Shown: positions 9,848-42,523 of the stretch, in pieces
How positions within the stretch are numbered: position 1 is the stretch's first letter
Layout of the letters: every line of letters begins with the position of its first letter
Source: an uncultured Campylobacter sp.
Lineage (GTDB): Bacteria > Campylobacterota > Campylobacteria > Campylobacterales > Campylobacteraceae
DNA: 64,000 nt
NCBI RefSeq assembly: GCF_937959485.1
Contig: NZ_CALGPY010000006.1
Span: 29,994-93,993 of the forward strand
Reading direction: 5' to 3'
The notes under the pieces: generated by a model
What the model saw: only the letters and a program-made list of their open reading frames with translations
What the model was told of the DNA's origin: nothing
The model's database searches: none
Translations under genes and position numbers: made by a program

Positions 9848-11065
9848 CTACTTTCGATTTGCGTTAGCAAGCATCAGTTTTATGCGGTTTTCTTGATTTA
9901 CCGCGCTTGCGCCCGGGTCGTAATCGATCGCGGCGATGTTTGCTTGCGGGTAGTTCTGCTTGATCTTTCGGATCATTCCGCGCGCGATGATGTGGTTTGG
10001 CAGGCAGCCAAAGGGCTGCGCGCACACGACGTTTTGTATGCCGTGACGCATAAACTCGACCATCTCCGCCGTCAGCAGCCAGCCCTCACCCATCTTCACG
10101 CCGTGACCGATGTAGCCGTCGGCGGCGGCGCGAACCTCGCTAAATGGGCTCGGTGCGCGAAAGCCGAAACGCTTCATCTGCTTAATCATCATGCGCTGGA
10201 AAAATTCCACTACTTTAGCGACCGCGAGCGAGCCGTAATACGCCGCGCCGCCCTTGCCGTAGAGCTGCTTGTCGTAGACCGCATCGTAGATACAGGTAAG
10301 CACGAAGTCCATCAGCCCCGTATTTACGGGCTCGGCGTTTTCGCGGATAAGGTAGGCGTTTAGGCCGTTGTTGCCGATGGGCGAGTATTTGAGATAAATT
10401 TCGCCCACGATGCCCACTTTTACTCGCGGCTTATCGTCGCGCTCGATTTTAGCAAACTGCGAGAGGACAAATTTGAAATTTTTCTTGAGATTGAAAAATG
10501 ATCTTTGATCAGTCAAATTTTTGATCCGCTCGGCGCAGAGTTCGTAAATTTCATTCGTTTGGTTTTTGATCTTTTCGTAGGGCTTGCACTGATTATACAG
10601 CCCCATCATCAAATCGCCGTAAAATATTGCGGCGAAGAGCTTTAGAAGCGATTTTTTTCCGAGGCTAAATTCATTCTCATCTAGCGAGCCGAAATTTAAC
10701 GAGATCGCGGGGACGTAGCTAAAGCCGCTGTCCTCAAGCGCTTTGCGAAGCAAATTTATATAGTTGCTCGCTCTGCAGCCGCCGCCCGTTTGGCTGATGA
10801 GAAGCGCTACCTTGTGCGTATCGAACTCGCCACTTTTGAGCGCGTCGATGAACTGCCCGATGACGAGTAGCGCGGGGTAGCACATATCGTTGTGGACGCT
10901 GCGAAGCCCCTCCTCGACGATATTTTGACGATTTTCGCCGAGCAAGACGCTCTTATAGCCCTCGTCGCGCAGCACCCCCTGCATAAAGCGAAAGTGCGGA
11001 TCGATCATTGTGGGGATCAATATCGTGTGGGTCGCTTTCATATCTTTCGTAAATTTAGCAAACAT
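9848..11065 (-). CDS. 2-hydroxyacyl-CoA dehydratase-family / activase-related protein
   Basis: 405 aa. Its start abuts the stop of the upstream activase gene. The overall pattern is that of the dehydratase-like partner normally paired with BadF/BcrA-type activases. Assigned from memory of the family, not from a search. Confidence 0.7.
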   Translation of the reverse strand: MFAKFTKDMKATHTILIPTMIDPHFRFMQGVLRDEGYKSVLLGENRQNIVEEGLRSVHNDMCYPALLVIGQFIDALKSGEFDTHKVALLISQTGGGCRASNYINLLRKALEDSGFSYVPAISLNFGSLDENEFSLGKKSLLKLFAAIFYGDLMMGLYNQCKPYEKIKNQTNEIYELCAERIKNLTDQRSFFNLKKNFKFVLSQFAKIERDDKPRVKVGIVGEIYLKYSPIGNNGLNAYLIRENAEPVNTGLMDFVLTCIYDAVYDKQLYGKGGAAYYGSLAVAKVVEFFQRMMIKQMKRFGFRAPSPFSEVRAAADGYIGHGVKMGEGWLLTAEMVEFMRHGIQNVVCAQPFGCLPNHIIARGMIRKIKQNYPQANIAAIDYDPGASAVNQENRIKLMLANANRK

Positions 11066-29124: not shown

Positions 29125-29889
29125 ATGCAGGTAAAACTGCGGCTCGCAACGCCGCAAGATGCGGAGGCGCTGCTTGAAATTTACGCGCCTTACGTAAAAC
29201 AAACGGCGATCAGCTTCGAATACGACGTGCCCAGCGCCGCGGAATTTGCGGAGCGCATCGAGCAAACGCTGCAAAGATACCCCTATCTGCTCGCTTACGC
29301 AAGCGACGAGGCGGCAGGCGCAAACGATGAACGGGATGAAAATTTTAAAATTTCTGCGGGCGCAGAGAGTGAAATTTCGCCCGCAGACGAAGCGCGAGAT
29401 CGCACAAACGCCGCGACGAAACAAAATGGCGCAAATTTAATCGTCGCGGCAAAGCAAAGCGGCGCAAATTTAAAACCGAATCAAATCCTCGGCTACGCCT
29501 ACGCTTCGGTTTTCAAAGAGCGGGCGGCATACGATTGGTCGGCGGAAAGCTCGGTCTATGTATCGCAAAACGTGCGCGCTCTGGGTATCGGCAGGCTGCT
29601 CTACGAGACGCTACAGCGCGCGCTCAAGGCTCAAAACATCGCAGATATGAACGCTTGCATCGCTTGCGGAGATGACAAATATCTAAACGACGCTAGCGTG
29701 CGATTTCACGAGCGTATGGGCTTTCGCTTCGTCGGCAGATTCGAGCGCTGCGCCTATAAATTCGGCCGCTGGTACGATATGGCGTGGATGCAAAAGCCGA
29801 TCGGCGAGCATCTGCAAAATCAGCCCGCAATGAAGCCTTTCGCGCGCTTTAGAGATGAAATTTGCGCGGGCGCGGGCATTAAAATTTAA
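29125..29889 (+). CDS. GNAT N-acetyltransferase (phosphinothricin acetyltransferase-like) with an internal low-complexity insertion
   Basis: 254 aa. RLATPQDAEALLEIYAPYV...GYAYAS...RALGIGRLLY...NDASVRFHERMGF. About 55 aa inserted (DEAAGANDERDENFKISAGAESEISPADEARDRTNAATKQNGANLIVAAKQSGANLKPNQ). Confidence 0.85.
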   Translation: MQVKLRLATPQDAEALLEIYAPYVKQTAISFEYDVPSAAEFAERIEQTLQRYPYLLAYASDEAAGANDERDENFKISAGAESEISPADEARDRTNAATKQNGANLIVAAKQSGANLKPNQILGYAYASVFKERAAYDWSAESSVYVSQNVRALGIGRLLYETLQRALKAQNIADMNACIACGDDKYLNDASVRFHERMGFRFVGRFERCAYKFGRWYDMAWMQKPIGEHLQNQPAMKPFARFRDEICAGAGIKI

Positions 29890-30970: not shown

Positions 30971-31363
30971 CTAATCATAATTAAAGTTATATGGTTCGTA
31001 GCCGAAAATATGCAATGTCTTTAAAGCCAGCTCTCTGATCTCTATCCAGGATTTGTTCTGATAGACCAAGTAATAGCCATCTTCTTCCCCCTTTAATATA
31101 CTGTCATCTTCAGTGTACTTATCTATGAGCTCCTTAAGTTCTCTTAGCGCATCCCTCTCGTATGGCAGGAAGCAAAATCTAAATTGCCCTAATAAAGCAT
31201 TCTTGCATTCATCATATAGCCAATCTACTATTTCGTCTGCCAATACATAGTAGTCCTTTGTGGGATGAACGATATATTTGTCCTGATATTCCAAAGAAGC
31301 CATTCGACTTAGATGACACATAAGAGCACCTTTCTCAAATATCTCTTTTCCGTTAATTTGCAT
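30971..31363 (-). CDS. island family A protein (copy 1 of 4), candidate immunity-type protein
   Basis: 130 aa. Aligns along its length with 35044..35439 (MQINGKEIF.KG.LM..L.RMASLEYQDKY...YERDALRELK...NKSWIEIRELALKT..IFGY). Preceded by the conserved leader repeat. Confidence 0.7.
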   Translation of the reverse strand: MQINGKEIFEKGALMCHLSRMASLEYQDKYIVHPTKDYYVLADEIVDWLYDECKNALLGQFRFCFLPYERDALRELKELIDKYTEDDSILKGEEDGYYLVYQNKSWIEIRELALKTLHIFGYEPYNFNYD

Positions 31364-31781
31364 TTGGGTTTCCTTTTATTGGGATGTGGGTTTCGTTGGT
31401 TTTGGATTTTAAATCCCCGCGCTCATAAAAATCATCAAGAGTGAAACCAAGTATATTCAGTAGTTTTAATGACTTCTCCATTATCTTTTTCCAAATTTCA
31501 GACATATTATCATATATCTCATCGTAGTCATATTTGCTATAAAAATAATCGATCATTTCTTTATACTCTGCTATGGCTTTTAGTTCTGTTTCTGTAAATA
31601 GAAATTTGTATTCCGGTCTCTGGGCTATCTCTAGAGGATTATATACATATTCGACTAATTCGCCCGGTGTTGCATATTCATCGATAGTGGAATTATCTAT
31701 ATATCTAATCTGATGTTTTCTAGATGCAAGACAATATAAAGGCTCGACGATAAAAGCCTTTTGTGCATTATTTTTCTGCAT
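31353..31781 (-). CDS. island family A-related protein (divergent copy)
   Basis: 142 aa. Shares the CLAS...Y, TE.ELKAIAEYKEMI and KSLKLLNILGFTLDDF blocks with family A. Its last 12 codons are encoded by the leader repeat of the next gene. Confidence 0.65.
   Translation of the reverse strand: MQKNNAQKAFIVEPLYCLASRKHQIRYIDNSTIDEYATPGELVEYVYNPLEIAQRPEYKFLFTETELKAIAEYKEMIDYFYSKYDYDEIYDNMSEIWKKIMEKSLKLLNILGFTLDDFYERGDLKSKTNETHIPIKGNPNAN
31361..31395 (-). repeat. island leader repeat, copy 1 (CATTTGGGTTTCCTTTTATTGGGATGTGGGTTTCG on the plus strand)
   Basis: Read directly from the sequence. It covers the start codon, the ribosome-binding site and about 20 nt upstream of 30971..31363. Confidence 0.85.
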
Positions 31782-31814
31782 TTGGGTTTCCTTTTATTGG
31801 GATATGAGTTTGCC
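31779..31814 (-). repeat. island leader repeat, copy 2
   Basis: CATTTGGGTTTCCTTTTATTGGGATATGAGTTTGCC, upstream of and overlapping the start of 31353..31781. Confidence 0.85.
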
Positions 31815-31873
31815 CGCATTATATCGTAATATATTTTTAAAATTCTCGCAGAAATTATCATTTTATAAAACTA

Positions 31874-32176
31874 CTATTTTAAAAGCGCAATTTGTTTTAA
31901 AGCCTTTTTCGCGCACTCCCTCAAATCCTCTTCGCTTAATGAATCACCTACCGTATCATCACCCCTCAACTCTTCGTCCGGTTTGAATTCATCGATATCG
32001 GTAAGAAGCCTGTTTAGCGGCTCATAATATTCATCGGAAAAATTTTTATCATTAATAAATTTATCCCAATATATCTCTTCAAATTCAAATACGTCGATTC
32101 TATTTTGCAAAAATCCTATATTATTTTTATATATTCCTCTATCACAATGAGCTCCTTTTGGATGTATTTTAATCAC
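31874..32176 (-). CDS. small acidic protein, colicin-type self-immunity-like (tentative)
   Basis: 100 aa. The C-terminal pattern DEFKPDEELRGDDTVGDSLSEEDLRECAKKAL resembles colicin-like immunity domains, judged from memory only. Confidence 0.5.
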   Translation of the reverse strand: MIKIHPKGAHCDRGIYKNNIGFLQNRIDVFEFEEIYWDKFINDKNFSDEYYEPLNRLLTDIDEFKPDEELRGDDTVGDSLSEEDLRECAKKALKQIALLK

Positions 32177-32441
32177 CCGCCGCTTTAATACCTAGAACCA
32201 ACCATAAATTACTACCGATATTCACGCCTTCGCATAAATTTTTTATAATTGTTAAGTCGTTAGAAGAAATTTTTATATCATATTCATACATTTGAACTAA
32301 AAAATCTTCCAGCGCTATACCATATTCTCCAGCCTTAACCAGTTCTTCCAAATAAATTACAAAGTCGCGCCGACCGACTTCGGCAAATTCATCTTTGTAA
32401 TTACTGAATAAATTTAAAAATATCGGATCGCTGTATCTCAT
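32169..32441 (-). CDS. MafI-family-like immunity protein
   Basis: 90 aa. The core AGEYGIALEDFLVQMYEYDIKISSNDLTIIKNL matches the MafI-type motif as I remember it (GE.GLALE.L...LYEYDI.I). Confidence 0.6.
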   Translation of the reverse strand: MRYSDPIFLNLFSNYKDEFAEVGRRDFVIYLEELVKAGEYGIALEDFLVQMYEYDIKISSNDLTIIKNLCEGVNIGSNLWLVLGIKAAGD

Positions 32442-32487
32442 TCGCTTCTTTCCTTAAATTTATTTCTCGTAGCCGCTTCATAATCTT

Positions 32488-32967
32488 CTAGCTTCTAATT
32501 TCTATTTGAATATCAAGCAAGTCATCGTGATCTGGGTATTTGGCAGTCTCCGAGAGCGTAAATTTTATCACGTCTAACAACTGCCTAGCCAGATCGCTGT
32601 ATTTTTTCTTAAATGCATTAAAATTTAAGAAAATTAGCTTTAAATCGTCTCGAACGCCTTGCTTATTTTTTAAACCGTATCGTGAGTTTTCTTCTTTTTC
32701 CTCGATATATTCGCTATAGCTTTCCCACTCGTCTTTATCTTTATATTGCTCCCACTCTTCCTCTTTGTAGTCTTTCCATTCCTTAAATCGCAGAAACCAA
32801 AAGAAATCTGCGAATGCATCAGGGCCGATACGTAGCGGTAAAGACAGCTTTTCGGATAAATATGAGTATAACTTATGCTCTATTTCTTTGGGACAATAAT
32901 CATGCCACTCATCAATATATCTTCTGTCTTTTTGCAACTCATCAAAGTCAATCACTACTTCTATCAT
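32488..32967 (-). CDS. hypothetical acidic W/E/K/Y-rich protein
   Basis: 159 aa ORF inside the co-oriented array. No motif recognised. Confidence 0.55.
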   Translation of the reverse strand: MIEVVIDFDELQKDRRYIDEWHDYCPKEIEHKLYSYLSEKLSLPLRIGPDAFADFFWFLRFKEWKDYKEEEWEQYKDKDEWESYSEYIEEKEENSRYGLKNKQGVRDDLKLIFLNFNAFKKKYSDLARQLLDVIKFTLSETAKYPDHDDLLDIQIEIRS

Positions 32968-33059
32968 TTTTCCTCACCCCAACTATGCTAACACATATTT
33001 TCTTAAAATTCTAAAAATCAAACAAACGCAAATTAACGCGAACTCGCCTTTATTAAATT

Positions 33060-33620
33060 TTAGTACAAATCAGACCAAAAAGGCACATACGGGCATTTTC
33101 TAATCGGCTCAAGAGGATTTTTACTAAATTCCCTCAAAAAGTAGTCATATAAATTTTTCCCATAATAAATGACATCGGTATAGTGTATAGATAAGACCGG
33201 TGGATCCGGTAATTTAAGACACGGCATATATCTATGGGAATATACGGGTATAATCTTAGGCGCGATTTTGGCTGCCTCTAGTATAATGGCTCGCTTGCGA
33301 GATTTGTCTTCGGGCATCGGACCCCATTTTTGCGTATTCCAATAGCTCTCATTTGGAAAAATTTCATCAATAGGATCGTTTTTTAAGTACTCAAAGACGT
33401 AGTTCATGGCCTGCTTTATCTCCTTTATATTTTCATCGCTAAAGTCTCTCCAATTATAAAATTCTACCGAAATGGGCAATGTATATGATAAAAAATCTCT
33501 TAGGCTTTTTGGAAATTTAAACTCATAAATTTGCTCTATTTTGTCTATTTCGCCCTCTTTCAAACCATCGCTCAATTCTATGCCGCTCTTTTCTAGCAGC
33601 TCTTTTATTTGCTTATACAT
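33060..33620 (-). CDS. SMI1/KNR4 (SUKH superfamily) immunity-type protein
   Basis: 186 aa. N-terminal pattern LEKSGIELSDGLKEGEIDKIEQIYEFKFPKSLRDFL, plus IPVYSHRYMP...PVLSIHYTDVIYYGKNLYDYF, typical of SMI1/KNR4 proteins. Confidence 0.65.
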   Translation of the reverse strand: MYKQIKELLEKSGIELSDGLKEGEIDKIEQIYEFKFPKSLRDFLSYTLPISVEFYNWRDFSDENIKEIKQAMNYVFEYLKNDPIDEIFPNESYWNTQKWGPMPEDKSRKRAIILEAAKIAPKIIPVYSHRYMPCLKLPDPPVLSIHYTDVIYYGKNLYDYFLREFSKNPLEPIRKCPYVPFWSDLY

Positions 33621-33645
33621 ATTCTATTTTATCCTTATAAGGCTT

Positions 33646-34020
33646 TTAGTCGTAATCGAAGTCATCAAGCTCATAACCAAAAATTTGGATTGTTTTTAGA
33701 GCTAATTCGCGTAGTCCGCAAAAGGTGCTATTGTGGTATATAAAATCTTCATAGTCTGTCATAGAAGCCTCTTCCTCCCAAAATTTTGAATCACACTCCG
33801 TAAATTTATCTAGCATTTTGGCTATCGCTTTACGTTCCTCCATACTGAAATAAATTTTGTTTGATTCCGCTAGGGCTATTTTGCAAGCGCTCTCACAATC
33901 TTCTATTAAATCTATGCACAACAAATACTTATCCTTTGTGGGGTTAAGCATATATTTTTCTTGGCATTTTAATGAAGCAAGGCAGCATAATTCTCTCAAT
34001 AGCCTTTCTTTTATTGACAT
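33646..34020 (-). CDS. island family A protein (copy 3)
   Basis: 124 aa. CLASLKCQEKY...MEERKAIAKML...LRELALKTIQIFGYELDDFDYD. Confidence 0.7.
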   Translation of the reverse strand: MSIKERLLRELCCLASLKCQEKYMLNPTKDKYLLCIDLIEDCESACKIALAESNKIYFSMEERKAIAKMLDKFTECDSKFWEEEASMTDYEDFIYHNSTFCGLRELALKTIQIFGYELDDFDYD

Positions 34021-34036
34021 TTTATTCTCCTAAATT

Positions 34037-34648
34037 TTATATCCCGTACCACTTCGTTACATTTCCCTCTTCGTCGATATCGACCTCTATGTGTTCGTAT
34101 TTATTGTAGAGGCTAGGAATTAAAATTTCATCATAATATTTTTTGCCGCATTCGGTGATAAATATATACATATTATGATGGCACCACCGATTAGGCTCTT
34201 CCCAAAAAGCGCAGTCTGCGTGAGTATAATTTTTTAGAGGTTCGTATGAGCGGGCTATAAATTTATCTAAATTATAAAAGAAATTTTCTCTTAAAATTTT
34301 CCATTCTTCAAATTTTATTATATTTAAATTTATATTAGCGCTAGTTTTATATTTTATGTCGGTATCTATGAAATTATTTAGATAAAACTGCCCAAAGAGC
34401 ATTATTAAAATATCTTTTACATTCTCATCACATAAATTAAAATTATGAATTAATGTGCTGGCGATAGAGTCGGTTTCATAAACTTCGGTGCTTTCCATTA
34501 GGCTAAACGCCTCGAGCTCATAAAAATCTAGCGATCTTTTCCCGCTTGCAGCTTGGAAATCTTTAAAAATCTTAAACCTAAAATCTTCCGCTTCGCTAAA
34601 GAAATATACGTATGGATTTAAATTTAGATCAAGTGCTTTTACTCTCAT
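34037..34648 (-). CDS. hypothetical protein
   Basis: 203 aa ORF, in-array, co-oriented, AT-rich codon usage. Confidence 0.55.
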   Translation of the reverse strand: MRVKALDLNLNPYVYFFSEAEDFRFKIFKDFQAASGKRSLDFYELEAFSLMESTEVYETDSIASTLIHNFNLCDENVKDILIMLFGQFYLNNFIDTDIKYKTSANINLNIIKFEEWKILRENFFYNLDKFIARSYEPLKNYTHADCAFWEEPNRWCHHNMYIFITECGKKYYDEILIPSLYNKYEHIEVDIDEEGNVTKWYGI

Positions 34649-34680
34649 TTTATACCGTCCAAATTATTGTTTTGCGCATT

Positions 34681-35019
34681 TTAGCCTTGTTTTGCATAAT
34701 AAGCTCTTCCCTGCTCTGTTTCTGTTACGCAAAAATATTTGCTATTTACGCCGACCGGCTCATAATTTTTATCATCTCTTAAAATATTTAAAATTTCAGA
34801 TTTATCGTGTATCTCTTTCATTTCTGTATCATAACCCCAATTTGAACTAAACAATCTTATATAACCTTGCTCGTATAAGGACAATAAAATTTCTTTCGCC
34901 ACTTTAAGCGAATTGGCAACGTTAATAGAATTTAATTCCCAAACGATCTCCCATAAAGGGATATAATCGCCATCTTCAACTATTCCCGATAAAATAGTTA
35001 AAATCGTCTTTTTATTCAT
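34681..35019 (-). CDS. hypothetical small protein
   Basis: 112 aa ORF, in-array. Confidence 0.55.
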   Translation of the reverse strand: MNKKTILTILSGIVEDGDYIPLWEIVWELNSINVANSLKVAKEILLSLYEQGYIRLFSSNWGYDTEMKEIHDKSEILNILRDDKNYEPVGVNSKYFCVTETEQGRAYYAKQG

Positions 35020-35043
35020 TTAAAACCGCATTTCCGAACCAGT

Positions 35044-35439
35044 CTAATCAAAGTCATAGTTGAAGTCATCTAAATCATATCCGAAAATTTGGATTGTTTT
35101 TAAGGCTAGCTCTCTGATCTCTATCCAAGATTTATTGTGATAGACCAAATATTCATAATCATCTACGTATAATGATCTATCGTCCTTAAAGTTTTTAAGA
35201 ATAAGAGACTTAAGCTCTCTTAGTGCATCCCTTTCGTATGACAAGAAATAAAATTCAAATTCCTCCAATAGGGCATTAGCGCAGGAATCACATAAAAAAT
35301 ATACCATCTCCTTAGGATTTTCGCAATCTTCATCTGTAGTGTGCACAAGATATTTATCCTGATATTCCAAAGAAGCCATTCGCCACAGATAAAACATAAG
35401 CCCACCTTTATAGAATATCTCTTTTCCATTAATTTGCAT
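35044..35439 (-). CDS. island family A protein (copy 4)
   Basis: 131 aa. Closest paralog of 30971..31363 and preceded by the same leader repeat. Confidence 0.7.
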   Translation of the reverse strand: MQINGKEIFYKGGLMFYLWRMASLEYQDKYLVHTTDEDCENPKEMVYFLCDSCANALLEEFEFYFLSYERDALRELKSLILKNFKDDRSLYVDDYEYLVYHNKSWIEIRELALKTIQIFGYDLDDFNYDFD

Positions 35440-35473
35440 TTGGGTTTCCTTTTATTGGGATATGGGTTTCGTC
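35437..35473 (-). repeat. island leader repeat, copy 3
   Basis: CATTTGGGTTTCCTTTTATTGGGATATGGGTTTCGTC, upstream of 35044..35439. Confidence 0.85.
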
Positions 35474-35814
35474 TAGCATTCTAAACTCACATATTTTAAT
35501 AAAATTTTCGGTCTTATATACAGTTCTATCTGCACCATTATGTCTATAGCAAAATTTTGTCCTATTTCTATAAATTCGCCATCTTTATTTCTTCTGATGT
35601 TTAAGGACTCGATGCATTCGGCGGTAAATTCCACAGCTGTCTCCCTGCCTGCTTTTATAGTAATTTCCACCCATCCCTCGACTATACAATATGTAAATAT
35701 TAGCCCGTCTATTTCGAACGTATATTTTCCAATATCGCTATCTATTTCATCCGGGTAAAAACCAAAAAAATCGCTCATCTCCATCACGTCGGGATACGTT
35801 TTTATATATGTCAT
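35473..35814 (-). CDS. hypothetical small protein
   Basis: 113 aa ORF, in-array. A degenerate leader-like sequence lies upstream. Confidence 0.55.
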   Translation of the reverse strand: MTYIKTYPDVMEMSDFFGFYPDEIDSDIGKYTFEIDGLIFTYCIVEGWVEITIKAGRETAVEFTAECIESLNIRRNKDGEFIEIGQNFAIDIMVQIELYIRPKILLKYVSLEC

Positions 35815-35845
35815 TTTATGCCTTCCTTTTGGGATGATAGTTATA
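35812..35845 (-). repeat. degenerate leader-like repeat
   Basis: CATTTTATGCCTTCCTTTTGGGATGATAGTT resembles the leader repeat (CATTT..TTCCTTTT.GGGAT). It lies upstream of 35473..35814. Confidence 0.45.
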
Positions 35846-35880
35846 AATTTTATACTTTAATCATGCCGAGAAAATAAATT

Positions 35881-37044
35881 TCATACAATTACATACACCG
35901 AGCTTTGATTAAATTTAGCCTCTGAAAAATCTACGATCTTTTCATTATCTCTTAAAGTATAAAGCTCGAAATCTGCGCTCAGCTCATCGATATTATAGAA
36001 ATCCAAACATAAAGCAAATCTACTGTTCTCAATATCCATATTTTCGATCTTTTCCTTTACCAATTTCAAAAATAAAAGGCATTCTTTAATAAAATCATCT
36101 TCCTTTAAATTTGGATTTTTGATCTCCACTTCATTGATCGACCACTCAAAATCGCTTAAGCCTTGATATATTGAAGAATTAATTAAAATGTTCTCTGTTG
36201 TGGCTATTCTTTCTCTTTTAAGATTCTTGATAAAAAATATTCCTGTGTCAAGATAGATCAGGCCTTCGCGCAATAGCTGCTTTAATTGCGATATTTTCAG
36301 ATCTTTGATTGAGCCGCTAAGAGCAATAAATTTAATTAAATTCGGATCGGCATACAAAGTTCCTCTTTTTATCTCTCTTGCTTCTTGCACTCTGGAAAAT
36401 AGCTCTTCATTATTTTTAGGCAGAAGAAAAACCGCTTTGTTCAAATTAACCTCTTTTTTATCTATCGTCACTTTTGCCTTGCTGTTTTTCTCGCAAAATT
36501 TTAAAAAGTTGATTCCATATTTAATCTCGTCGTTTAGCCCTATACAGCCAAAACCCTTGCTATCATGCGGATAGACGGCTAAATTTAAACTCGGAAAAAC
36601 TATAAAACACCATTCGTTTATCGAATAATCATAGCACATTAAAAATTTAGCCAGCTCTTTTATGTCGTCCCATTTCAGAATGTCCATTCTTATGCACATA
36701 GCGGGCAACGGATATTCTTTATCTCTAGCTAGAGAAAAATACTCATTTTGTTCTTGCAAAATTCCAAGATCTTTAAATTTATCGTATAACGGCTTTACCT
36801 GCGAGATTGCTTTATATTTTTTGTATACTTTATCATCACACATTAGAGCGCTTACGATAAATACTTCATCGCTATATTTTCTAAAAAAGTTATCGAATAA
36901 TTTTATCGCTAAATTTACTCCGCTTAGCCAGCCCTTGCTTTCGATCTCAAAGAAACCGATCCAGTTTTTAGAAGCGCTGAAGCTGCTAAAATTTATATCG
37001 CTCAGCCTTAAACTACTATTTTTCAAATTTAATAACTTTTTCAT
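35881..37044 (-). CDS. hypothetical protein, the largest ORF of the array
   Basis: 387 aa. No catalytic or secretion motif recognised. Confidence 0.6.
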   Translation of the reverse strand: MKKLLNLKNSSLRLSDINFSSFSASKNWIGFFEIESKGWLSGVNLAIKLFDNFFRKYSDEVFIVSALMCDDKVYKKYKAISQVKPLYDKFKDLGILQEQNEYFSLARDKEYPLPAMCIRMDILKWDDIKELAKFLMCYDYSINEWCFIVFPSLNLAVYPHDSKGFGCIGLNDEIKYGINFLKFCEKNSKAKVTIDKKEVNLNKAVFLLPKNNEELFSRVQEAREIKRGTLYADPNLIKFIALSGSIKDLKISQLKQLLREGLIYLDTGIFFIKNLKRERIATTENILINSSIYQGLSDFEWSINEVEIKNPNLKEDDFIKECLLFLKLVKEKIENMDIENSRFALCLDFYNIDELSADFELYTLRDNEKIVDFSEAKFNQSSVYVIV

Positions 37045-37112
37045 CTTTACCCACCGTAATTTTTGCTTTTGCTAAATTATACACCTTATTTGCGAAGCAA
37101 AGATCATTTATA

Positions 37113-37508
37113 TTAATTTTCATAGAAAAATTTGATTTTATAAAAATTTTCATCCCCTGACGCAACCACTAATAATAAGCTTTTTATACGGCGAAATCTA
37201 TCGAAAATATTCGGCTTTGTATCTTCTTGATATTTATACGTTTTAAAACATTCGCTTTTTGCGTCTATATCTACGTCGCGCCAACTTCCGTTTAGAAATA
37301 TATCATTAGAGATAGAAATAATGCCTTGCATTATTTCTGGGTCCAACTCTTTGTTTTTATAATGCCGCAAAATCTTTTTTAAATCAGCTTCTAATTTCCA
37401 ATATTCATCATCGGACCATAGATTATTATCCAAAATCATACCTATAAAGGAATTTGCATCATATCTATCATCAAATGCGGTATTTCTATAAAAATTTACA
37501 AGATTCAT
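37113..37508 (-). CDS. island family B protein (copy 1 of 2)
   Basis: Aligns with 37513..37899 from MNLVNFYRN... (W.D.DYWKL...L..IL..Y.NK.L..EI...I..I.ND...IFDRF.R.K.L). Start moved to the internal ATG 37508, which removes the overlap with the upstream paralog. Confidence 0.65.
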   Translation of the reverse strand: MNLVNFYRNTAFDDRYDANSFIGMILDNNLWSDDEYWKLEADLKKILRHYKNKELDPEIMQGIISISNDIFLNGSWRDVDIDAKSECFKTYKYQEDTKPNIFDRFRRIKSLLLVVASGDENFYKIKFFYEN

Positions 37509-37512
37509 TGCA

Positions 37513-37899
37513 TCAATCCTTTGGAGCATACCAAAAACCGCTATTGTCAAGCTTTTCTTTGAATACGATGCTGTTGCACAGAACCTTTAATCTTTCAAAT
37601 CTATCATATATGCTAGGCACTACGCCGTCGCTGTTTTTCGCACACAATATATTGCTTACATAAATTTCCGATTTGTCCTCCACGCCGATAACATCATTAA
37701 ATATCGCTAGTATTGCGATGAAAATTTCTTTTGGAAGCGTTTTGTTATGATAAAAGCTCAAAATCTGCATTAAAGTTTTATCCAACTTCCAATAGTCGCA
37801 ATCCGACCAAGTTTTTTGATAGATAAATTTTCCGACAAACGAATTAATGCTGAATTTATCAGAATTCGTTGAATTTTGGTATAAAAGCTTTAAATACAT
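37513..37899 (-). CDS. island family B protein (copy 2 of 2)
   Basis: 128 aa tandem paralog of the previous gene. Confidence 0.65.
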   Translation of the reverse strand: MYLKLLYQNSTNSDKFSINSFVGKFIYQKTWSDCDYWKLDKTLMQILSFYHNKTLPKEIFIAILAIFNDVIGVEDKSEIYVSNILCAKNSDGVVPSIYDRFERLKVLCNSIVFKEKLDNSGFWYAPKD

Positions 37900-37973
37900 T
37901 AATCACCGTCCTTTTTTCATTCTTTATTAAACATTTAGCCATCTTTATGACAAATTTATATTTATAAAATTGA

Positions 37974-38309
37974 TTATTTTCTGCTTGGCAACTCTTTAGA
38001 TAAAATTTTTGAATCAGTATACAATTTTTTCAAAAATTCTATCTCTTCTTGATCTAGCTCATCTAAAACCTCTTCTGTCGGTTTTTCGCTTAAAATTTTT
38101 CCATAAACCAAACTCAGCCTTTTATATGCGCGCGGGTTACCGTTCTTTTCAAATTGCTTTATTATAGCAATTCTGCACTCTTTTGTTATTTCAGAATTGC
38201 CCATAAAAAGATCTTTTATATCGCAAGAAGCGCTTTGCTCTTTATATAGATAAAATATCCACGCAAATAATATTATAGCGGCGGCAATAAAGTAAATTTT
38301 ATTTTTCAT
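37974..38309 (-). CDS. island family C membrane-anchored protein (copy 1 of 2)
   Basis: 111 aa. N-terminal TM helix (IYFIAAAIILFAWIFYLY), then C..KD....N......C......Q......G..R.Y.RL, shared with 38318..38779. Confidence 0.6.
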   Translation of the reverse strand: MKNKIYFIAAAIILFAWIFYLYKEQSASCDIKDLFMGNSEITKECRIAIIKQFEKNGNPRAYKRLSLVYGKILSEKPTEEVLDELDQEEIEFLKKLYTDSKILSKELPSRK

Positions 38310-38317
38310 GAAATCTC

Positions 38318-38779
38318 TTATTCTTTTGGTTTTTTATCCGTGTAATATAGATGTATGACTTCATCCATGTTAATCTCTTTTTCCTTTCCGATCCGCTCGG
38401 TACACAATGTGAAATTTCCCTCCCTCAAAACGCACTTTTTTAATAAACCAACTATAAAGTCGTTATTTGTGCATAGATCTAAATTTCCAGAATGAAATTT
38501 TTTAATAAAATTTAGCTCTTCTTTGTCTAATTCTTGCTGCGCCTTTTTATCTACACAATATCTATCTAAAAAATATCGCTCATAAAAATAAAAAAGTCGC
38601 CTATGCCCCCCGCTGTTGCCATTATTAGCCCGTCGTATCAATTTTAATCTGCATTTTTGCTCCATACGATTGTAGTTTTGCCTCAACATATCGTTAATAT
38701 CACAAGGTGAAAAACTTAGCACCGAAAGAATAATATAAATATAAAGAAATATACTAATTATGATGAGAAAAAATTTCAT
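38318..38779 (-). CDS. island family C membrane-anchored protein (copy 2 of 2)
   Basis: 153 aa. N-terminal TM helix and the same Cys-spaced domain plus ELDKEELNFIKKF (compare ELDQEEIEFLKKL). Confidence 0.6.
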   Translation of the reverse strand: MKFFLIIISIFLYIYIILSVLSFSPCDINDMLRQNYNRMEQKCRLKLIRRANNGNSGGHRRLFYFYERYFLDRYCVDKKAQQELDKEELNFIKKFHSGNLDLCTNNDFIVGLLKKCVLREGNFTLCTERIGKEKEINMDEVIHLYYTDKKPKE

Positions 38780-38857
38780 TTTATATCCTTACTTATTTTT
38801 GGTTTTTTAGATATAACCGATCAATCATAGAATTTGCGATTTAATTAGTAATAAAAG

Positions 38858-38876
38858 TGGTGTCCTGCGTTGAATT
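38858..38876. repeat. partial copy of the tRNA-Lys 3' end (att-type direct repeat, distal copy)
   Basis: TGGTGTCCTGCGTTGAATT here versus TGGTGTCCTGCGTTGGATT at 42223..42241. That is 18 of 19 identical, in the same orientation. Confidence 0.8.
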
Positions 38877-40757
38877 TTTACAACCCTCAGAATTCCCCCG
38901 AACACTCGATTACAGAATATCAGTATATAGTCTTTTAAAAAACTATATAAAAATATTTGTCGTCTCTTAAGGAAACTTTAAATAATAAGCAAAAATGAGT
39001 TAAGAAGTTTCAAACCTTAAGAAATTTAGCTTAAGCCTTATAGCAGCTCAAGGTTTAAAATCTTAAAGATGTTGATTAATACATTTTCACTAAATGCCTT
39101 AAGCGCCTATCTGTAAGATGTTTGTTCTTTAAGGCAGAGAACAAATAAAAACAGATAAAAGCTTAAAGCCTTCTTCGTCCTTATGAACAAGGGGATTATA
39201 TTAGAAAGATCTTAAAAGCTTCTTAGCTCAAATTTATTAATCTCTTCTTTTACTTTCATTTGCAGATAAAAAGTCTAAAGGCTTAGAGGCTTCTTTAAAA
39301 GTATAAAGGAGGCCATGCTATTTTCTTATATAGTATTAAGATAGCCAAAGGCTTTTAAAATATGGGAGAGTGTTTAAAAAATGATGGGTTGCCACCCTTA
39401 ATACTTCATACCTAAATATCTTCAATATCCTTTAGATACTCAAGCATTCTATTAGAGCAAAGCCCAAAATATCAAAAGCAAGGCTACACATAAAAAATAT
39501 CCTTAAAATGGATAGGCTAAGAGGTTGCTCTATCTATGATAAAAGAGCTACTTTGGTAAATAATATCCCCGCAAGCGATAAAAATATATTAAGATCAAAT
39601 ACTATTTATAATATAGTACTAGGCAAAAAATACTCCTAAAAGAAATAAAAAATTTATTCTATCCACTAGATATATAAAATTCCGCCTATGCAATATAATA
39701 TCCCTACAAGGAATAATCGCAACGGCGGTAGCAGACGAGCAAATGCTCCGCTAGCGACGAGCGAGGCAAGCCCCGTAACCTTTAACGGAGGCGCTACCTC
39801 CACGCGGCTTTTCAGATAGCCCCCCTTTTTCAAATTTAATGCACTTAGGCAATAAATAAAACGAAGAAGAAGGCTATCTAGGGAAAAAACTCTAGGGGCA
39901 AAAAGACGTTACATCTTTAGAATTTAGTTAAAACAGAAGCTTTTTAGATTAATGTGCGAAGCTATAACGCACCTCTGCGATTTTTCTTATTACCCCAAAC
40001 CGCCAGCGGGGAACTAAAGATTAAGAATGCTTGATAAGCGTTTAAGCTTATCAATAAAAACATTACCGATAACGTAACCCATCGAAAAACCATAATATAT
40101 AAACTTTAAAGGCTACTTCAAAAGCCTAAAGGCTTTTTAACATATAAAACATTCTTTCTCCTTAGTAAAAACGTTATAAGATATTTCAAAAATACCTTAT
40201 GAAAACAATATAGCTGAAAAAGAAAAAAAATGGTGTGAGTTGTTTTTAAAAGACGGAGGTTATTTTAATAAACTTGGGTCTAAAGGCAATGAGGCAACCT
40301 GGTAAACCGAGCATTAAAAGATATGAAAGCTAATATGCAATATGCAAGAAATTCCTAGTAAAAAGCATAAGGCCAAAAAAGAATGGGAATGCTTCAGAAT
40401 TTATATAATCTATCGTGGCCCTATCCTCGCAAGCACTTACCTTCAGTATCAAAAGAAAGAAGACGAGTGCTCAAAAGGAGGCAATGCACTTAAAATTAGG
40501 GCGAGCGCTTAGGAAAGGAGTAGTGATGAAGTAATATACGAGAAGGGAGGGAAAGTAAGTGCTTTTTTAAGAGGATAAGGCGGCTCATACCCCAATTACG
40601 GTAAGCTGTAGAATGACAAACTGCGGATAGATTTGCTTTAACTCTCTATCTTACTGTTTTTCCGCTTATCCGGAAATTTCTAAAGTACATAAGCATATAG
40701 ACTCAAGGACGCTATCCATAGTAGGAATAATACCTTTAGCCCTCCCCCTCTCTCCCC
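38877..40757. other. ORF-free AT-rich segment inside the integrase mini-element
   Basis: The six-frame track has no ORF of 60 aa or more between 38780 and 40757. Stops are dense in all frames and the plus strand is purine-rich. Confidence 0.8.
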
Positions 40758-41990
40758 TTAAAATTTAAACCCCAGCCCCTTTAAATAACCTAGCCACCAT
40801 GTTAGAACCCTACGAGTATTCTCAACGTTCGTAGCTTTGTTATAAATCTTTTGTATCTCTCTTTGTGCATGAAAAAGGGTACGTTCAATGCTATAAGGAT
40901 CCAGCTTGTTCTCATGTATTTTTTCATATGCAAAGGTTTCTAGTATCTTTCTAAAAGAGTGAAAAACTAGTCTATTCTTAGCTATTACGGGAGCATAGGT
41001 TTTAAGCGCTTTAACTAGAGTCATATCGCTTAGTACCTCTCCTTGCGTATTGGCAAAGCATAGCAAGCAGCTGCTATTATGAGCGTGTAACCTTTGCAGC
41101 CATTGCCCTACTTCTCTAGGAAGTCCAAGATGTTCATCTCCATTGCTTTTTACCTTATTCTCATCTTGCGGGAATAGTAAGTAGTATTCTCCATCATCGC
41201 CCACTTTTAAATGCTCATGGGTTAAATTTCTTACATTTGAGCTTCTTAGCCCCGTAAGCAGTCCAAAGATCAAAGCATTCTTAACACCTATTTGATGAGG
41301 ATAGTTCATGATAAATTTAATAAGTACGGTTAAATCCAAGTCATCTTTTATATATGGGTATTCGCTATGGCGAGGTATATTATAAAAGTCCTTAAACACC
41401 TCTTCTGCAAATAATGGATTTTTGGAAATATCTCTTATGCGAGCATATCTGAATAGTCTTTTAATGAGTTTGAATAAAATTTCTAAGGAAGCGTATTTTT
41501 CATTATCGTAATAATAATCCAGTATCGGCATAATATCCTTTTTGCTTATCTTGTTTATATCTTTGTCACAAATATCCCTTAAAGCTTTAAAGCTCATATC
41601 TCGTCTTTTAGAGGTTGCTAATGCAACATTGCCGTTATGTCTGCGAAACTGTCTATAAACGCTTGCCAGAGTATTTTTAGCAGGAGTCAGCTTAGCAGAA
41701 TCATCTATCATTAAACCTTTAAGAGTTTCTTTGGCCTCGCTTAGGCTTATCTCATCTACATTACCTAAAGACTTAATCAGCTTGCCGCCTATGCAATAGT
41801 GATAGTGCCTATGGATTGTTTGCTCTCCCTTTTTAGTAGATGAGCGGTAAAATCTAACTGCTATATGCTCATCGATCATTTCCACCATAGTGTTTTTGCG
41901 ATGAGGCAGGGAGAAATTTCTGATGACTTTATCGGGATCCGTTTTAAAAGCCGGATCGTCTTTAATTTTAGAAAAAACTTTCATAACCAC
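40758..41990 (-). CDS. tyrosine-type site-specific integrase (P4-like)
   Basis: 410 aa. Catalytic region TGLRSSN (R), HSFRK (H-x-x-R), LFHAQ and IYNKA (Y). Long N-terminal arm-binding-like region. Adjacent to a tRNA gene. Confidence 0.88.
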   Translation of the reverse strand: MVMKVFSKIKDDPAFKTDPDKVIRNFSLPHRKNTMVEMIDEHIAVRFYRSSTKKGEQTIHRHYHYCIGGKLIKSLGNVDEISLSEAKETLKGLMIDDSAKLTPAKNTLASVYRQFRRHNGNVALATSKRRDMSFKALRDICDKDINKISKKDIMPILDYYYDNEKYASLEILFKLIKRLFRYARIRDISKNPLFAEEVFKDFYNIPRHSEYPYIKDDLDLTVLIKFIMNYPHQIGVKNALIFGLLTGLRSSNVRNLTHEHLKVGDDGEYYLLFPQDENKVKSNGDEHLGLPREVGQWLQRLHAHNSSCLLCFANTQGEVLSDMTLVKALKTYAPVIAKNRLVFHSFRKILETFAYEKIHENKLDPYSIERTLFHAQREIQKIYNKATNVENTRRVLTWWLGYLKGLGFKF

Positions 41991-42149
41991 TTATCCTTTA
42001 AAATTTCATATAGTTTCATAGGACAAATTATAAAAGTTTCCAAAGAGCTTAGCAAGCTTAAGAGCTACTATACATTTTTTAATATATAGTAGTTTCTCTT
42101 AAACCGCCTGTATAATCTAGCGTTTTTAACATTTGAAATTTTTTTGAAA

Positions 42150-42180
42150 AAATTTGAAAAAGCCGTAAAACAGGGCTTTT
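42150..42180 (-). terminator. candidate intrinsic terminator after the tRNA-Val/Asp/Lys cluster
   Basis: In the minus sense AAAGCC-CTGTTTTAC-GGCTTT is followed by TTCAAATTTTTT, about 45 nt downstream of tRNA-Lys. Confidence 0.45.
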
Positions 42181-42222
42181 AAAAAAATCAAAAAACTAAA
42201 AATAGGGGGGAAATTTGATAGA

Positions 42223-42241
42223 TGGTGTCCTGCGTTGGATT
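42223..42241. repeat. att-type direct repeat, tRNA-proximal copy (3' end of tRNA-Lys)
   Basis: Matches 38858..38876 at 18 of 19 positions. Confidence 0.8.
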
Positions 42242-42298
42242 CGAACCAACGACCCCCTCATTAAAAGTGAGATGCTCTACCGACTGAGCTAGCAAGAC
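42223..42298 (-). tRNA. tRNA-Lys (anticodon UUU)
   Basis: Hand-folded. Acceptor GTCTTGC/GCAGGAC, anticodon stem TCTCA/TGAGG with loop CTTTTAA, T-arm GTTGG-TTCGAAT-CCAAC, encoded CCA. Confidence 0.9.
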
Positions 42299-42310
42299 AT
42301 CGTAAGAAAG

Positions 42311-42387
42311 TGGCGCGACGAATGGGGCTCGAACCCACGACCTCCGCCGTGACAGGGCGGCATTCTAACCAGCTGAACTACCGTCGC
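42311..42387 (-). tRNA. tRNA-Asp (anticodon GUC)
   Basis: Acceptor GCGACGG/TCGTCGC, anticodon stem CCGCC/GGCGG with loop CTGTCAC, T-arm GTGGG-TTCGAGC-CCCAT, encoded CCA. Confidence 0.9.
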
Positions 42388-42447
42388 ACCAAAAATCACA
42401 CTCGCAGCGCAAGTGCTAAAGAAGTATGAAATCCAAGGATTTCAAAA

Positions 42448-42523
42448 TGGTGGTCGCTGTAGGGATCGAACCTGCGACATCCACCTTGTAAGGGTGGCGC
42501 TCTACCAGCTGAGCTAAGCGACC
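42448..42523 (-). tRNA. tRNA-Val (anticodon UAC)
   Basis: Acceptor GGTCGCT/AGCGACC, anticodon stem CCACC/GGTGG with loop CTTACAA, T-loop TTCGATC with one C-A mismatch in the T-stem, encoded CCA. Confidence 0.85.

Follow-up and report, generated by a model that had tools for sequence, protein, structure and literature searches.

A strain-variable array of small genes at tRNA-Lys of an uncultured Campylobacter, a candidate heterogeneous polyimmunity locus next to a separate integrase element

Organization of the gene array

The 64-kb window considered here, that is, the whole stretch of DNA that was analysed, derives from an uncultured Campylobacter sp. and comprises, between positions 30971 and 38779, an array of sixteen small co-oriented open reading frames (ORFs) of 90-387 amino acids (aa), all encoded on the minus strand, numbered O01 to O16 by rising coordinate and read in the direction O16 to O01 (Table 1). 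Considering the immunity-protein families found in it, the tight packing of its genes, the lack of interspersed toxins, and its variation between strains, the array is taken, with moderate confidence, to be a heterogeneous polyimmunity locus as Zhang et al. 2012 (PMC3482391) use the term. The array is independent of the adjacent tyrosine integrase gene, which belongs to a separate and later insertion.

Coding sequence accounts for ~93% of this 7.8-kb stretch, and consecutive ORFs are spaced from a 38-nt overlap to a 92-nt gap; the 38-nt value hinges on a doubtful TTG start of O13, whose true start is probably a downstream ATG, and the next largest overlap is 11 nt. Shine-Dalgarno-like AGGA/GGAG motifs are located upstream of most of the start codons. 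The GC content ranges from 0.30 to 0.37 per gene (~32% overall) versus ~0.47-0.53 in the flanks (~50%), and both the GC skew and the AT skew are strongly negative across the array, which fits its minus-strand coding. Thirteen of the sixteen products display an isoelectric point (pI) below 6, O14, O15, and O16 being neutral to basic. Comparison by blastp discloses three paralogue families, including (i) family A, formed by O01, O02, O07, and O10 (E 1e-11 to 9e-50), (ii) family B, formed by O13 and O14 (E 6e-20), and (iii) family C, formed by O15 and O16 (E 2e-10). The sole intergenic repeat in the array (repeat family D6) is a leader of ~33-42 nt common to three family A genes; the other spacers are unrelated. 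In O02, the C-terminal tail arises from translation of the leader that belongs to the following family A gene.

The ratio of nonsynonymous to synonymous substitutions (dN/dS) lies between 0.08 and 0.36 in 13 of the 16 array genes, those with usable orthologues in related loci, next to values of 0.09 (integrase), 0.11 (ComEC), 0.04 (SLT gene), and 0.007 (GlnA). The thirteen measurable genes are therefore real, maintained, and under purifying selection.

A sequence-only reading of the same DNA had described sixteen minus-strand ORFs of 90-387 aa, far more AT-rich than their flanks, coding for mostly small and acidic products and including paralogue families of four, two, and two members, and these features are reproduced by the measurements given above. 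The spacing that it proposed, from an 11-nt overlap to about 90 nt, agrees with the largest gap and falls short of the largest overlap if the TTG start of O13 is used. The end that it assigned to the array, 38857, is the exact edge of the attR repeat of the integrase element.

Table 1. Position and assignment of the array genes and of the features between the array and the tRNA cluster (window coordinates)
Feature	Coordinates	Strand	Size (aa)	Assignment	Basis
O01	30971-31363	-	130	family A paralogue, pI 4.7	blastp
O02	31353-31781	-	142	family A paralogue	blastp
O03	31874-32176	-	100	colicin-type immunity domain protein	Pfam PF09204
O04	32169-32441	-	90	MafI-like, below cut-off	NCBIfam NF033691
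O05	32488-32967	-	159	unclassified acidic protein	
O06	33060-33620	-	186	possible SUKH/SMI1_KNR4, weak	
O07	33646-34020	-	124	family A paralogue	blastp
O08	34037-34648	-	203	unclassified	
O09	34681-35019	-	112	unclassified, no family match	
O10	35044-35439	-	131	family A paralogue	blastp
O11	35473-35814	-	113	unclassified, no family match	
O12	35881-37044	-	387	Campylobacter-restricted protein, almost no relatives	
O13	37113-37550	-	145	Imm41 immunity protein	Pfam PF15592
O14	37513-37899	-	128	Imm41 immunity protein	Pfam PF15592
O15	37974-38309	-	111	family C, basic pI	
O16	38318-38779	-	153	family C, N-terminal architecture as in O15	
attR of integrase element	38858-38874	-		TTCAACGCAGGACACCA; boundary between element and array	
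ORF-less conserved core	39705-40246 (core 39854-40103)			in integrase element, not array	
Tyrosine integrase	40758-41990	-		in separate 3.36-kb element	PF00589
tRNA-Lys(UUU)	42223-42298	-		3' 17 nt (42223-42239) = attL, = attB in empty-site strains	
tRNA-Lys, tRNA-Asp, tRNA-Val cluster	42223-42523				

Immunity families and unclassified genes

Five of the array genes resemble described immunity families, three above and two below the curated cut-offs. The matches above the cut-offs comprise (i) O03 with Colicin_immun (PF09204; E 1.5e-7, 32.3 bits, cut-off 22), where a colicin-type immunity domain had already been recognized from the sequence, and (ii) O13 and O14 with Imm41 (PF15592, cut-off 26.9), with E 1.4e-11 and 44.8 bits for O13 and E 1.2e-9 and 38.7 bits for O14. 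The Imm41 identity of family B had been overlooked in the earlier reading; homologues of O13 are annotated as Imm41 in Acinetobacter, and five matching sites occur in Neisseria gonorrhoeae chromosomes. Among the array proteins looked up in RefSeq, all are labelled hypothetical except O03, which is named colicin immunity domain-containing protein. Below the cut-offs, O04 matches MafI (NF033691 in NCBIfam) with E 3.6e-6 and 26.7 bits, just under the cut-off of 31, whereas O06 matches SMI1_KNR4 (PF09346) with E 0.003 and 18.5 bits against a cut-off of 25.4, in addition to PF14567 with E 0.015, also below cut-off. The MafI-like core and the SUKH signature attributed earlier to these two genes hold as resemblances, that of O06 being weak, and fall short of the curated thresholds. 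Sequence searches of the PDB with O06 and O03 gave no useful match.

Family A, for which clustering at 50% identity gives ~160 clusters in a set of 1.84 billion representatives, is the most abundant group in the array. The AlphaFold2 model of O01 displays a helical bundle with a predicted local distance difference test (pLDDT) score of 90, and a profile search of family A against the PDB returned noise only. A weak match of the family to the NCBIfam entry "SCO4402" (E 0.004) was reproduced in none of 51 members and was discarded. The 130-aa proteins of the family (30971-31363; homologues P0011, P0025, P0042, and others) carry the name "phytanoyl-CoA dioxygenase" at NCBI and JGI; this name finds no support in Pfam, in NCBIfam, or in the predicted helical-bundle structure and is probably a propagated misannotation.

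In the two family C proteins, a hydrophobic helix at the N-terminus precedes a conserved Cys, and a second Cys stands 20 residues further on, a pattern by which they are read as probably membrane-anchored or periplasmic. O12 is confined to Campylobacter, with four homologue clusters among 5.8 billion proteins, and a metagenome scan with it returned almost exclusively sequences of the same clade; its AlphaFold2 model, built from four sequences, is unusable (pLDDT 41), and a PDB sequence search gave noise only. O05 has no match in Pfam, NCBIfam, PADLOC, PHROGs, or plasmids, and tblastn searches of plasmids with O05, O01, and O16 also returned no match.

Toxins and flanking genes

No array ORF contains a toxin domain according to Pfam. 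The spacers, all of at most 92 nt, are too short to conceal toxin cassettes, and no toxin pseudogene fragments occur in them. Among the ten largest ORFs in the rest of the window, nine encode housekeeping proteins (PheT, EPSP synthase, Ffh, KdtA, DAHP synthase, SerS, and others), and the tenth (9848-11065) has no Pfam match. The array is thus toxin-less within the 64-kb window, as had been read from the sequence; its orphan status at the scale of the whole genome lies beyond the reach of the window.

The integrase element at tRNA-Lys

The interval 38858-42222 is a 3.36-kb element composed of the integrase gene and 1.9 kb without an ORF, bordered by a 17-nt direct repeat. The left copy, attL (42223-42239, TCCAACGCAGGACACCA), forms the 3' end of tRNA-Lys, and the right copy, attR (38858-38874, TTCAACGCAGGACACCA), is identical to it at 16 of 17 nt, with 0.03 matches expected by chance. 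In five related contigs retrieved by the metagenome scan with O12 (L051, L053, L054, L056, and L061), the array adjoins tRNA-Lys with neither the integrase nor the 1.9-kb spacer. In L051, L054, and L061 the sequence at the junction is exactly what results when the left flank of attL is fused to the right flank of attR, and L053 and L056 display the same empty-site join with a slightly different downstream junction. A search with a 30-mer and an 18-mer from the tRNA-Lys end, allowing up to three mismatches, disclosed no repeat; the 17-nt core emerged only from the empty-site contigs. No third att repeat is found at the distal end of the array.

The att repeats together with the empty sites imply that the element inserted between tRNA-Lys and a pre-existing array. 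The attributes of a tRNA-integrated island, namely an integrase, copies of the tRNA 3' end as direct repeats on either side, and an unoccupied site in relatives, are found in the 3.36-kb element and not in the array, so that the array is independent of the integrase. The earlier proposal that the tyrosine recombinase is a hallmark partner of the immunity genes fails on this point, since the recombinase has its own attL/attR element and is absent from five contigs that bear the array.

A scan for the integrase, with one genome per species, recovered 43 loci, all in Campylobacter metagenome-assembled genomes (MAGs), including C. gracilis, except for one weak match in Sulfurimonas. Integrase copies with 93-98% identity to the one in the window precede three different cargos, comprising (i) the array; (ii) a restriction-modification group, with a BpuSI-like type IIS restriction enzyme and C5 and N6 DNA methylases right after the conserved core (L016:10225-15339 and L021:5743-10854); and (iii) an RTX group, in which the opposite strand after the integrase encodes a conserved product of 298 aa, another of 137 aa, and giant RTX-repeat proteins (2000-2400 aa) with HemolysinCabind and HCBP_related domains (L006:5648-14427, L009:12738-21195, L017, L019, L022, L014, and L023). 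The RTX cargo genes, with a GC content of ~36%, are regarded as foreign on that account, and no attR of the RTX-bearing copies occurs within the fetched range. In addition, a second, paralogous integrase (55-72% identity) is present in the same MAGs beside a sequence resembling the tRNA-Lys end (L031-L044); its cargo is small and different, including a conserved 221-aa gene, and contains neither array genes nor the conserved core.

The ORF-less part of the element holds a highly conserved segment (39705-40246), with a mean pairwise identity of 98% across 14 loci, exceeding that of integrase codon positions 1-2 (96-97%) and position 3 (87%), and found only adjoining this integrase. Searches of the ORF-less 2 kb (38780-40757) by blastn against plasmids and phages and against Rfam gave no match, and no ORF is kept across the loci, single-nucleotide indels breaking every candidate frame; the core and the integrase are likewise absent from IMG/VR. 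The variable sites of the core, considered on the integrase-sense strand, are located in predicted loops or represent pair-keeping U-G to U-A changes, and RNAalifold found no compensatory changes in it. The core may encode a non-coding RNA or serve the element as a cis-acting site.

Variation between strains

About fifteen related loci carry each a different subset of O01-O16 together with extra family A copies, the variable blocks being O12-O10, O09-O08, O07-O06, O05-O03, O16, and the copy number of family A. In the comparison of the tRNA-Lys locus across Campylobacter envisaged in the sequence-only reading, the gene content thus differs in every related locus examined. In L001, L002, and L012 the deletion junction falls inside the family A paralogues O10 and O07, which share a 57-nt stretch at the 3' end that is 82% identical. 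At synonymous sites the array genes diverge by 0.05-0.25, which does not exceed the 0.2-0.34 of the flanks. This pattern suggests one old acquisition followed by differential loss, duplication, and inter-strain exchange by homologous recombination, without a sign of continuing cassette capture. A second small presence/absence difference adjoins the array: a 254-aa ORF at 29125-29889, with a YCII-like gene on one side and a PIN7-like gene on the other, is missing from the syntenic flank in L001.

Homologues next to toxin-like genes in other genomes

The idea, raised from the sequence, that toxins might stand beside homologous immunity genes in other genomes finds its counterpart in C. majalis (L049, JBOEHM010000018). 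There, a large ORF truncated by the contig end lies upstream of a 55%-identical homologue of O12, whose start precedes the stop of that ORF by 29 nt, and a C-terminal fragment of an Ntox21 toxin (PF15526, E 2e-15) directly precedes two Imm41 genes. The complete order in L049:1-4846 comprises the truncated large ORF, the O12 homologue, a DUF7336 protein, a DUF6980 fragment, the Ntox21 C-terminal fragment, the two Imm41 genes, and three small ORFs, an arrangement that resembles a polymorphic-toxin locus. The Ntox21-Imm41 pairing is tabulated by Zhang et al. 2012 (PMC3482391), and its presence in C. majalis implies that toxins of the Ntox21 type occur in the genus Campylobacter. The upstream toxin-like fragment, of 256 aa, has no match in Pfam, NCBIfam, or the PDB, and tblastn with this ORF and with the Ntox21 fragment finds no counterpart in the window.

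Plasmids of C. coli and C. jejuni, among them one with the name pT6SS, encode homologues of O08 that share 31-36% identity with it. On pPF065-186, a Lipase_3-domain protein of 1434 aa immediately precedes the O08 homologue, and conjugation genes are located in the same region. The 248-aa homologue stands between two hypothetical proteins of ~1300-1430 aa both in C. jejuni pPF065-186 (L062:7461-16463) and in pT6SS_BCH-10155 (L063), one of the two large neighbours containing a Lipase_3/PGAP1-like domain; four places in pPF065-186 match O08. The plasmid context of these homologues is ambiguous, and a connection to type VI secretion (T6SS) is at most suggestive.

Comparison with known immunity loci

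In the maf islands of Neisseria, MafB toxins occur with MafI immunity genes and orphan cassettes, and a full-length MafB is accompanied by alternative C-terminal toxin cassettes placed between immunity genes. The array resembles these islands in its MafI-like and Imm41 genes and differs from them in that it contains neither MafB nor toxin cassettes.

The concept of polyimmunity was introduced for SUKH arrays by Zhang et al. 2011 (PMC3113570), and Zhang et al. 2012 (PMC3482391) describe polyimmunity loci in proteobacteria and list Imm41 both for epsilon-proteobacteria and for polyimmunity loci; a mention of Campylobacter there concerns a phage. As in such loci, the array consists of tandem, co-oriented, and tightly spaced genes of several unrelated immunity families with no interspersed toxins, is strain-variable, and, as is sometimes the case for polyimmunity loci, has a recombinase next to it. 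Measured against a definition of at least four tandem genes from at least two unrelated families, the array is judged to belong, with three genes of two families strictly certain and five genes of four families likely. In addition, no toxin interrupts it, spacers of -38 to +92 nt and a single orientation agree with a presumed polycistron, and gene number and type differ among the ~15 loci. On the other hand, no described immunity family accounts for 11 of its 16 members, the recombinase beside it represents a later independent insertion, and the locus abuts a tRNA operon.

In the recombinase-associated acquired interbacterial defence clusters of Bacteroidales (rAID-1; Ross et al. 2019, bioRxiv 10.1101/471110), a conserved XerD-like recombinase forms an integral component on the 5' side, the sequences between genes are repetitive and integron-like, and the members include homologues of Bacteroidales T6SS immunity genes. 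The likeness lies in the low-GC, co-directional, predicted immunity genes downstream of a tyrosine recombinase (at least two such genes define rAID-1, and the array exceeds this number), the absence of toxins, the strain variability, and the host-associated bacteria in which both are found. In contrast, the integrase at the present locus is not integral to the array but separable, att-bounded, and absent from sister strains, integron-like intergenic repeats are not found, and the families represented point to toxins of contact-dependent inhibition (CDI) systems, Maf toxins, or colicin-type RNases instead of Bacteroidales T6SS effectors.

The tandem immunity arrays of type VII secretion (T7SS) in Firmicutes (esaG, tsaI) are described as evolving by recombination between paralogues (10.1101/2022.01.07.475358). 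They share with the present array the non-identical immunity paralogues whose copy number changes by homologous recombination, as in the family A junctions of L001, L002, and L012. T7SS arrays are homogeneous and stand beside a T7SS toxin locus, whereas the array at tRNA-Lys is heterogeneous and has no toxin nearby.

Proposed function and alternative explanations

In the proposed mechanism, the array would be a horizontally acquired and probably polycistronic set of genes, coding mostly for acidic cytoplasmic proteins together with two membrane-anchored ones, each of which would bind and neutralize a single toxin domain, whether this reaches the cell from other bacteria or kin or is made by the cell itself. 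From what is known of the families, (i) Imm41 (O13 and O14) would act against Ntox21- or Ntox29-type RNases, (ii) the colicin-D-type immunity domain of O03 against ColD-like tRNases, and (iii) the MafI-like O04 and the SUKH-like O06 against MafB-type or nuclease toxins. RNase toxins of the Ntox21, Ntox29, and ColD types appear as the best-supported targets; the probably membrane-anchored family C proteins would cover toxins acting in the periplasm or the membrane. The array lies directly downstream of, and co-oriented with, the tRNA-Val-Asp-Lys cluster, the integrase element having inserted later in the 3' end of tRNA-Lys, and its content turns over between strains by block deletion, duplication, and exchange, at least partly through homologous recombination between the dispersed family A paralogues. 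In the empty-site strains the array starts ~80 nt after the co-oriented tRNA-Lys, which makes read-through from the tRNA operon possible, a speculative suggestion. We infer an immunity role for the other eleven genes, the co-transcription of the array, and the protection that it would confer.

Several observations weigh against the polyimmunity interpretation. Eleven of the sixteen ORFs have no significant match in Pfam or NCBIfam and no recognized immunity domain, and the MafI and SUKH assignments of O04 and O06, being under the curated cut-offs, are weak; immunity signatures thus stand above the curated thresholds in three genes and below them in two, and for the other eleven the neighbour context is what remains. 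Foldseek with the O01 model against the PDB returned generic helical bundles, with a best E of 0.08, and among 51 family A members NCBIfam found no match and Pfam a single one, a DUF7919 fusion. The two distant family A homologues with a readable context are both located amid housekeeping genes, one after uvrC and the other between serS and surE (a 135-aa ORF after serS in the window is unrelated to the family). Given this lack of a family or fold match and the housekeeping contexts of distant members, the immunity role of family A is argued from its neighbours. Furthermore, a promoter and terminator scan of the array stayed at chance level, and no gene outside the O01-O16 set occurs in the ~15 loci, which show no sign of ongoing cassette capture.

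Among the alternatives, the array could be a reserve or cognate immunity store against polymorphic toxins encoded elsewhere in the same genome, for example of hemagglutinin/CDI or RTX type, serving the protection of the cell itself or its kin instead of an acquired defence against other species. This is a possible account, on the unlikely side: over the 30 kb upstream and the 25 kb downstream, the ten largest ORFs of the flanks disclose no toxin, no array member is homologous to the 137-aa or the 298-aa gene beside the RTX genes, and the content of the array varies independently of anything visible nearby. It draws its plausibility from the type-strain genome of C. gracilis, in which hemagglutinins, toxins, and immunity proteins are reported (PMC4574385), from the sister genomes with AT-rich giant RTX proteins downstream of the same integrase at tRNA-Lys, from the proposal by Zhang et al. 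2012 (PMC3482391) that loci of this kind extend to own or future toxins, and from the view being limited to 64 kb of the genome. Rather unlikely is a mixed accessory island, in which only the four or five recognizable genes would act in immunity and the other eleven would be, for instance, regulators, DNA mimics, anti-defence factors, or stress proteins that have only the hot spot for foreign DNA in common with them. The eleven ORFs without a family match, the distant family A relatives in housekeeping operons, and the restriction-modification and RTX cargo that the tRNA-Lys hot spot holds in relatives speak for it; against it, the unclassified genes are interleaved with recognized immunity genes in a tight co-oriented array, the O12 homologue of C. 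majalis follows a large toxin-like ORF, PADLOC and PHROGs yield no matches, and many validated immunity families were first defined by such a context (Zhang et al. 2012, PMC3482391).

That the array is the decaying remnant of a polymorphic-toxin locus, with its toxins lost and its immunity genes drifting, is improbable, given dN/dS values (13 genes) like those of the integrase and ComEC, the 9-16 intact genes kept in most loci, and spacers free of toxin pseudogene fragments, even if shortened versions exist in some strains (O12 of 320 aa, O08 of 153-172, O14 of 85-90, O03 of 72-82, and O01 of 85) and block deletions are frequent. Least credible of all is a recombinase-driven capture of cassettes, rAID-1- or integron-like, by the adjacent tyrosine recombinase. 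The integrase is co-oriented and lies 2 kb upstream of the array, and the low-GC, co-directional genes downstream agree with rAID-1 in two of the three criteria that Ross et al. use operationally; nevertheless, this integrase sits inside its own attL-attR element, the five array contigs devoid of it display the expected attB at the junction, the same integrase precedes restriction-modification or RTX genes in other genomes, no repeated intergenic recombination sites are found, and the gene set of the array is closed across loci. The rAID- or integron-like reading is therefore rejected, because the integrase is separate, the far end of the array lacks a third repeat, and no integron-like sites occur in the spacers.

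Other candidates were discarded on direct grounds. An integron is contradicted by the lack of attC-like inverted repeats between the genes and by the att site of the integrase, which is a phage-type tRNA site. For the ten unclassified ORFs scanned, PADLOC gave nothing better than E 0.02 and PHROGs gave nothing; the readings as an anti-phage island and as a prophage remnant were rejected. Type II toxin-antitoxin pairs were dismissed because the overlapping partners are both immunity- or family A-like (O14/O13, Imm41; O02/O01, family A; O04/O03, MafI-like and colicin-type).

Implications

The polyimmunity reading can be carried further, tentatively, to a working acquired interbacterial defence (AID) in Campylobacterota, in which family A (4-5 copies per locus), O12, and other unclassified ORFs would constitute new immunity families against undescribed Campylobacter toxins and would be expressed by read-through from the tRNA operon; separately, and with the same reserve, the integrase-only element would be a minimal mobile element relying on a non-coding RNA or cis-acting site. 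The kind of locus is not new, being known as the polyimmunity loci of proteobacteria, described by Zhang et al. 2012 (PMC3482391) with Imm41 listed in epsilon-proteobacteria. The value of the locus lies mainly in its candidate new immunity families, namely family A, O05, O08, O09, O11, O12, and family C, and in the two leads to cognate toxins in C. majalis, the Ntox21 fragment with Imm41 and the truncated ORF upstream of the O12 homologue. For genome scanning, the locus also carries a caution: an integrase beside an immunity array is in itself no sign of recombinase-driven capture, the two being here independent tenants of one tRNA hot spot. If the array is functional, gut or oral Campylobacter of the C. 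gracilis group would stockpile immunity genes against contact-dependent toxins, and the polyimmunity/AID concept would extend to the Campylobacterota.

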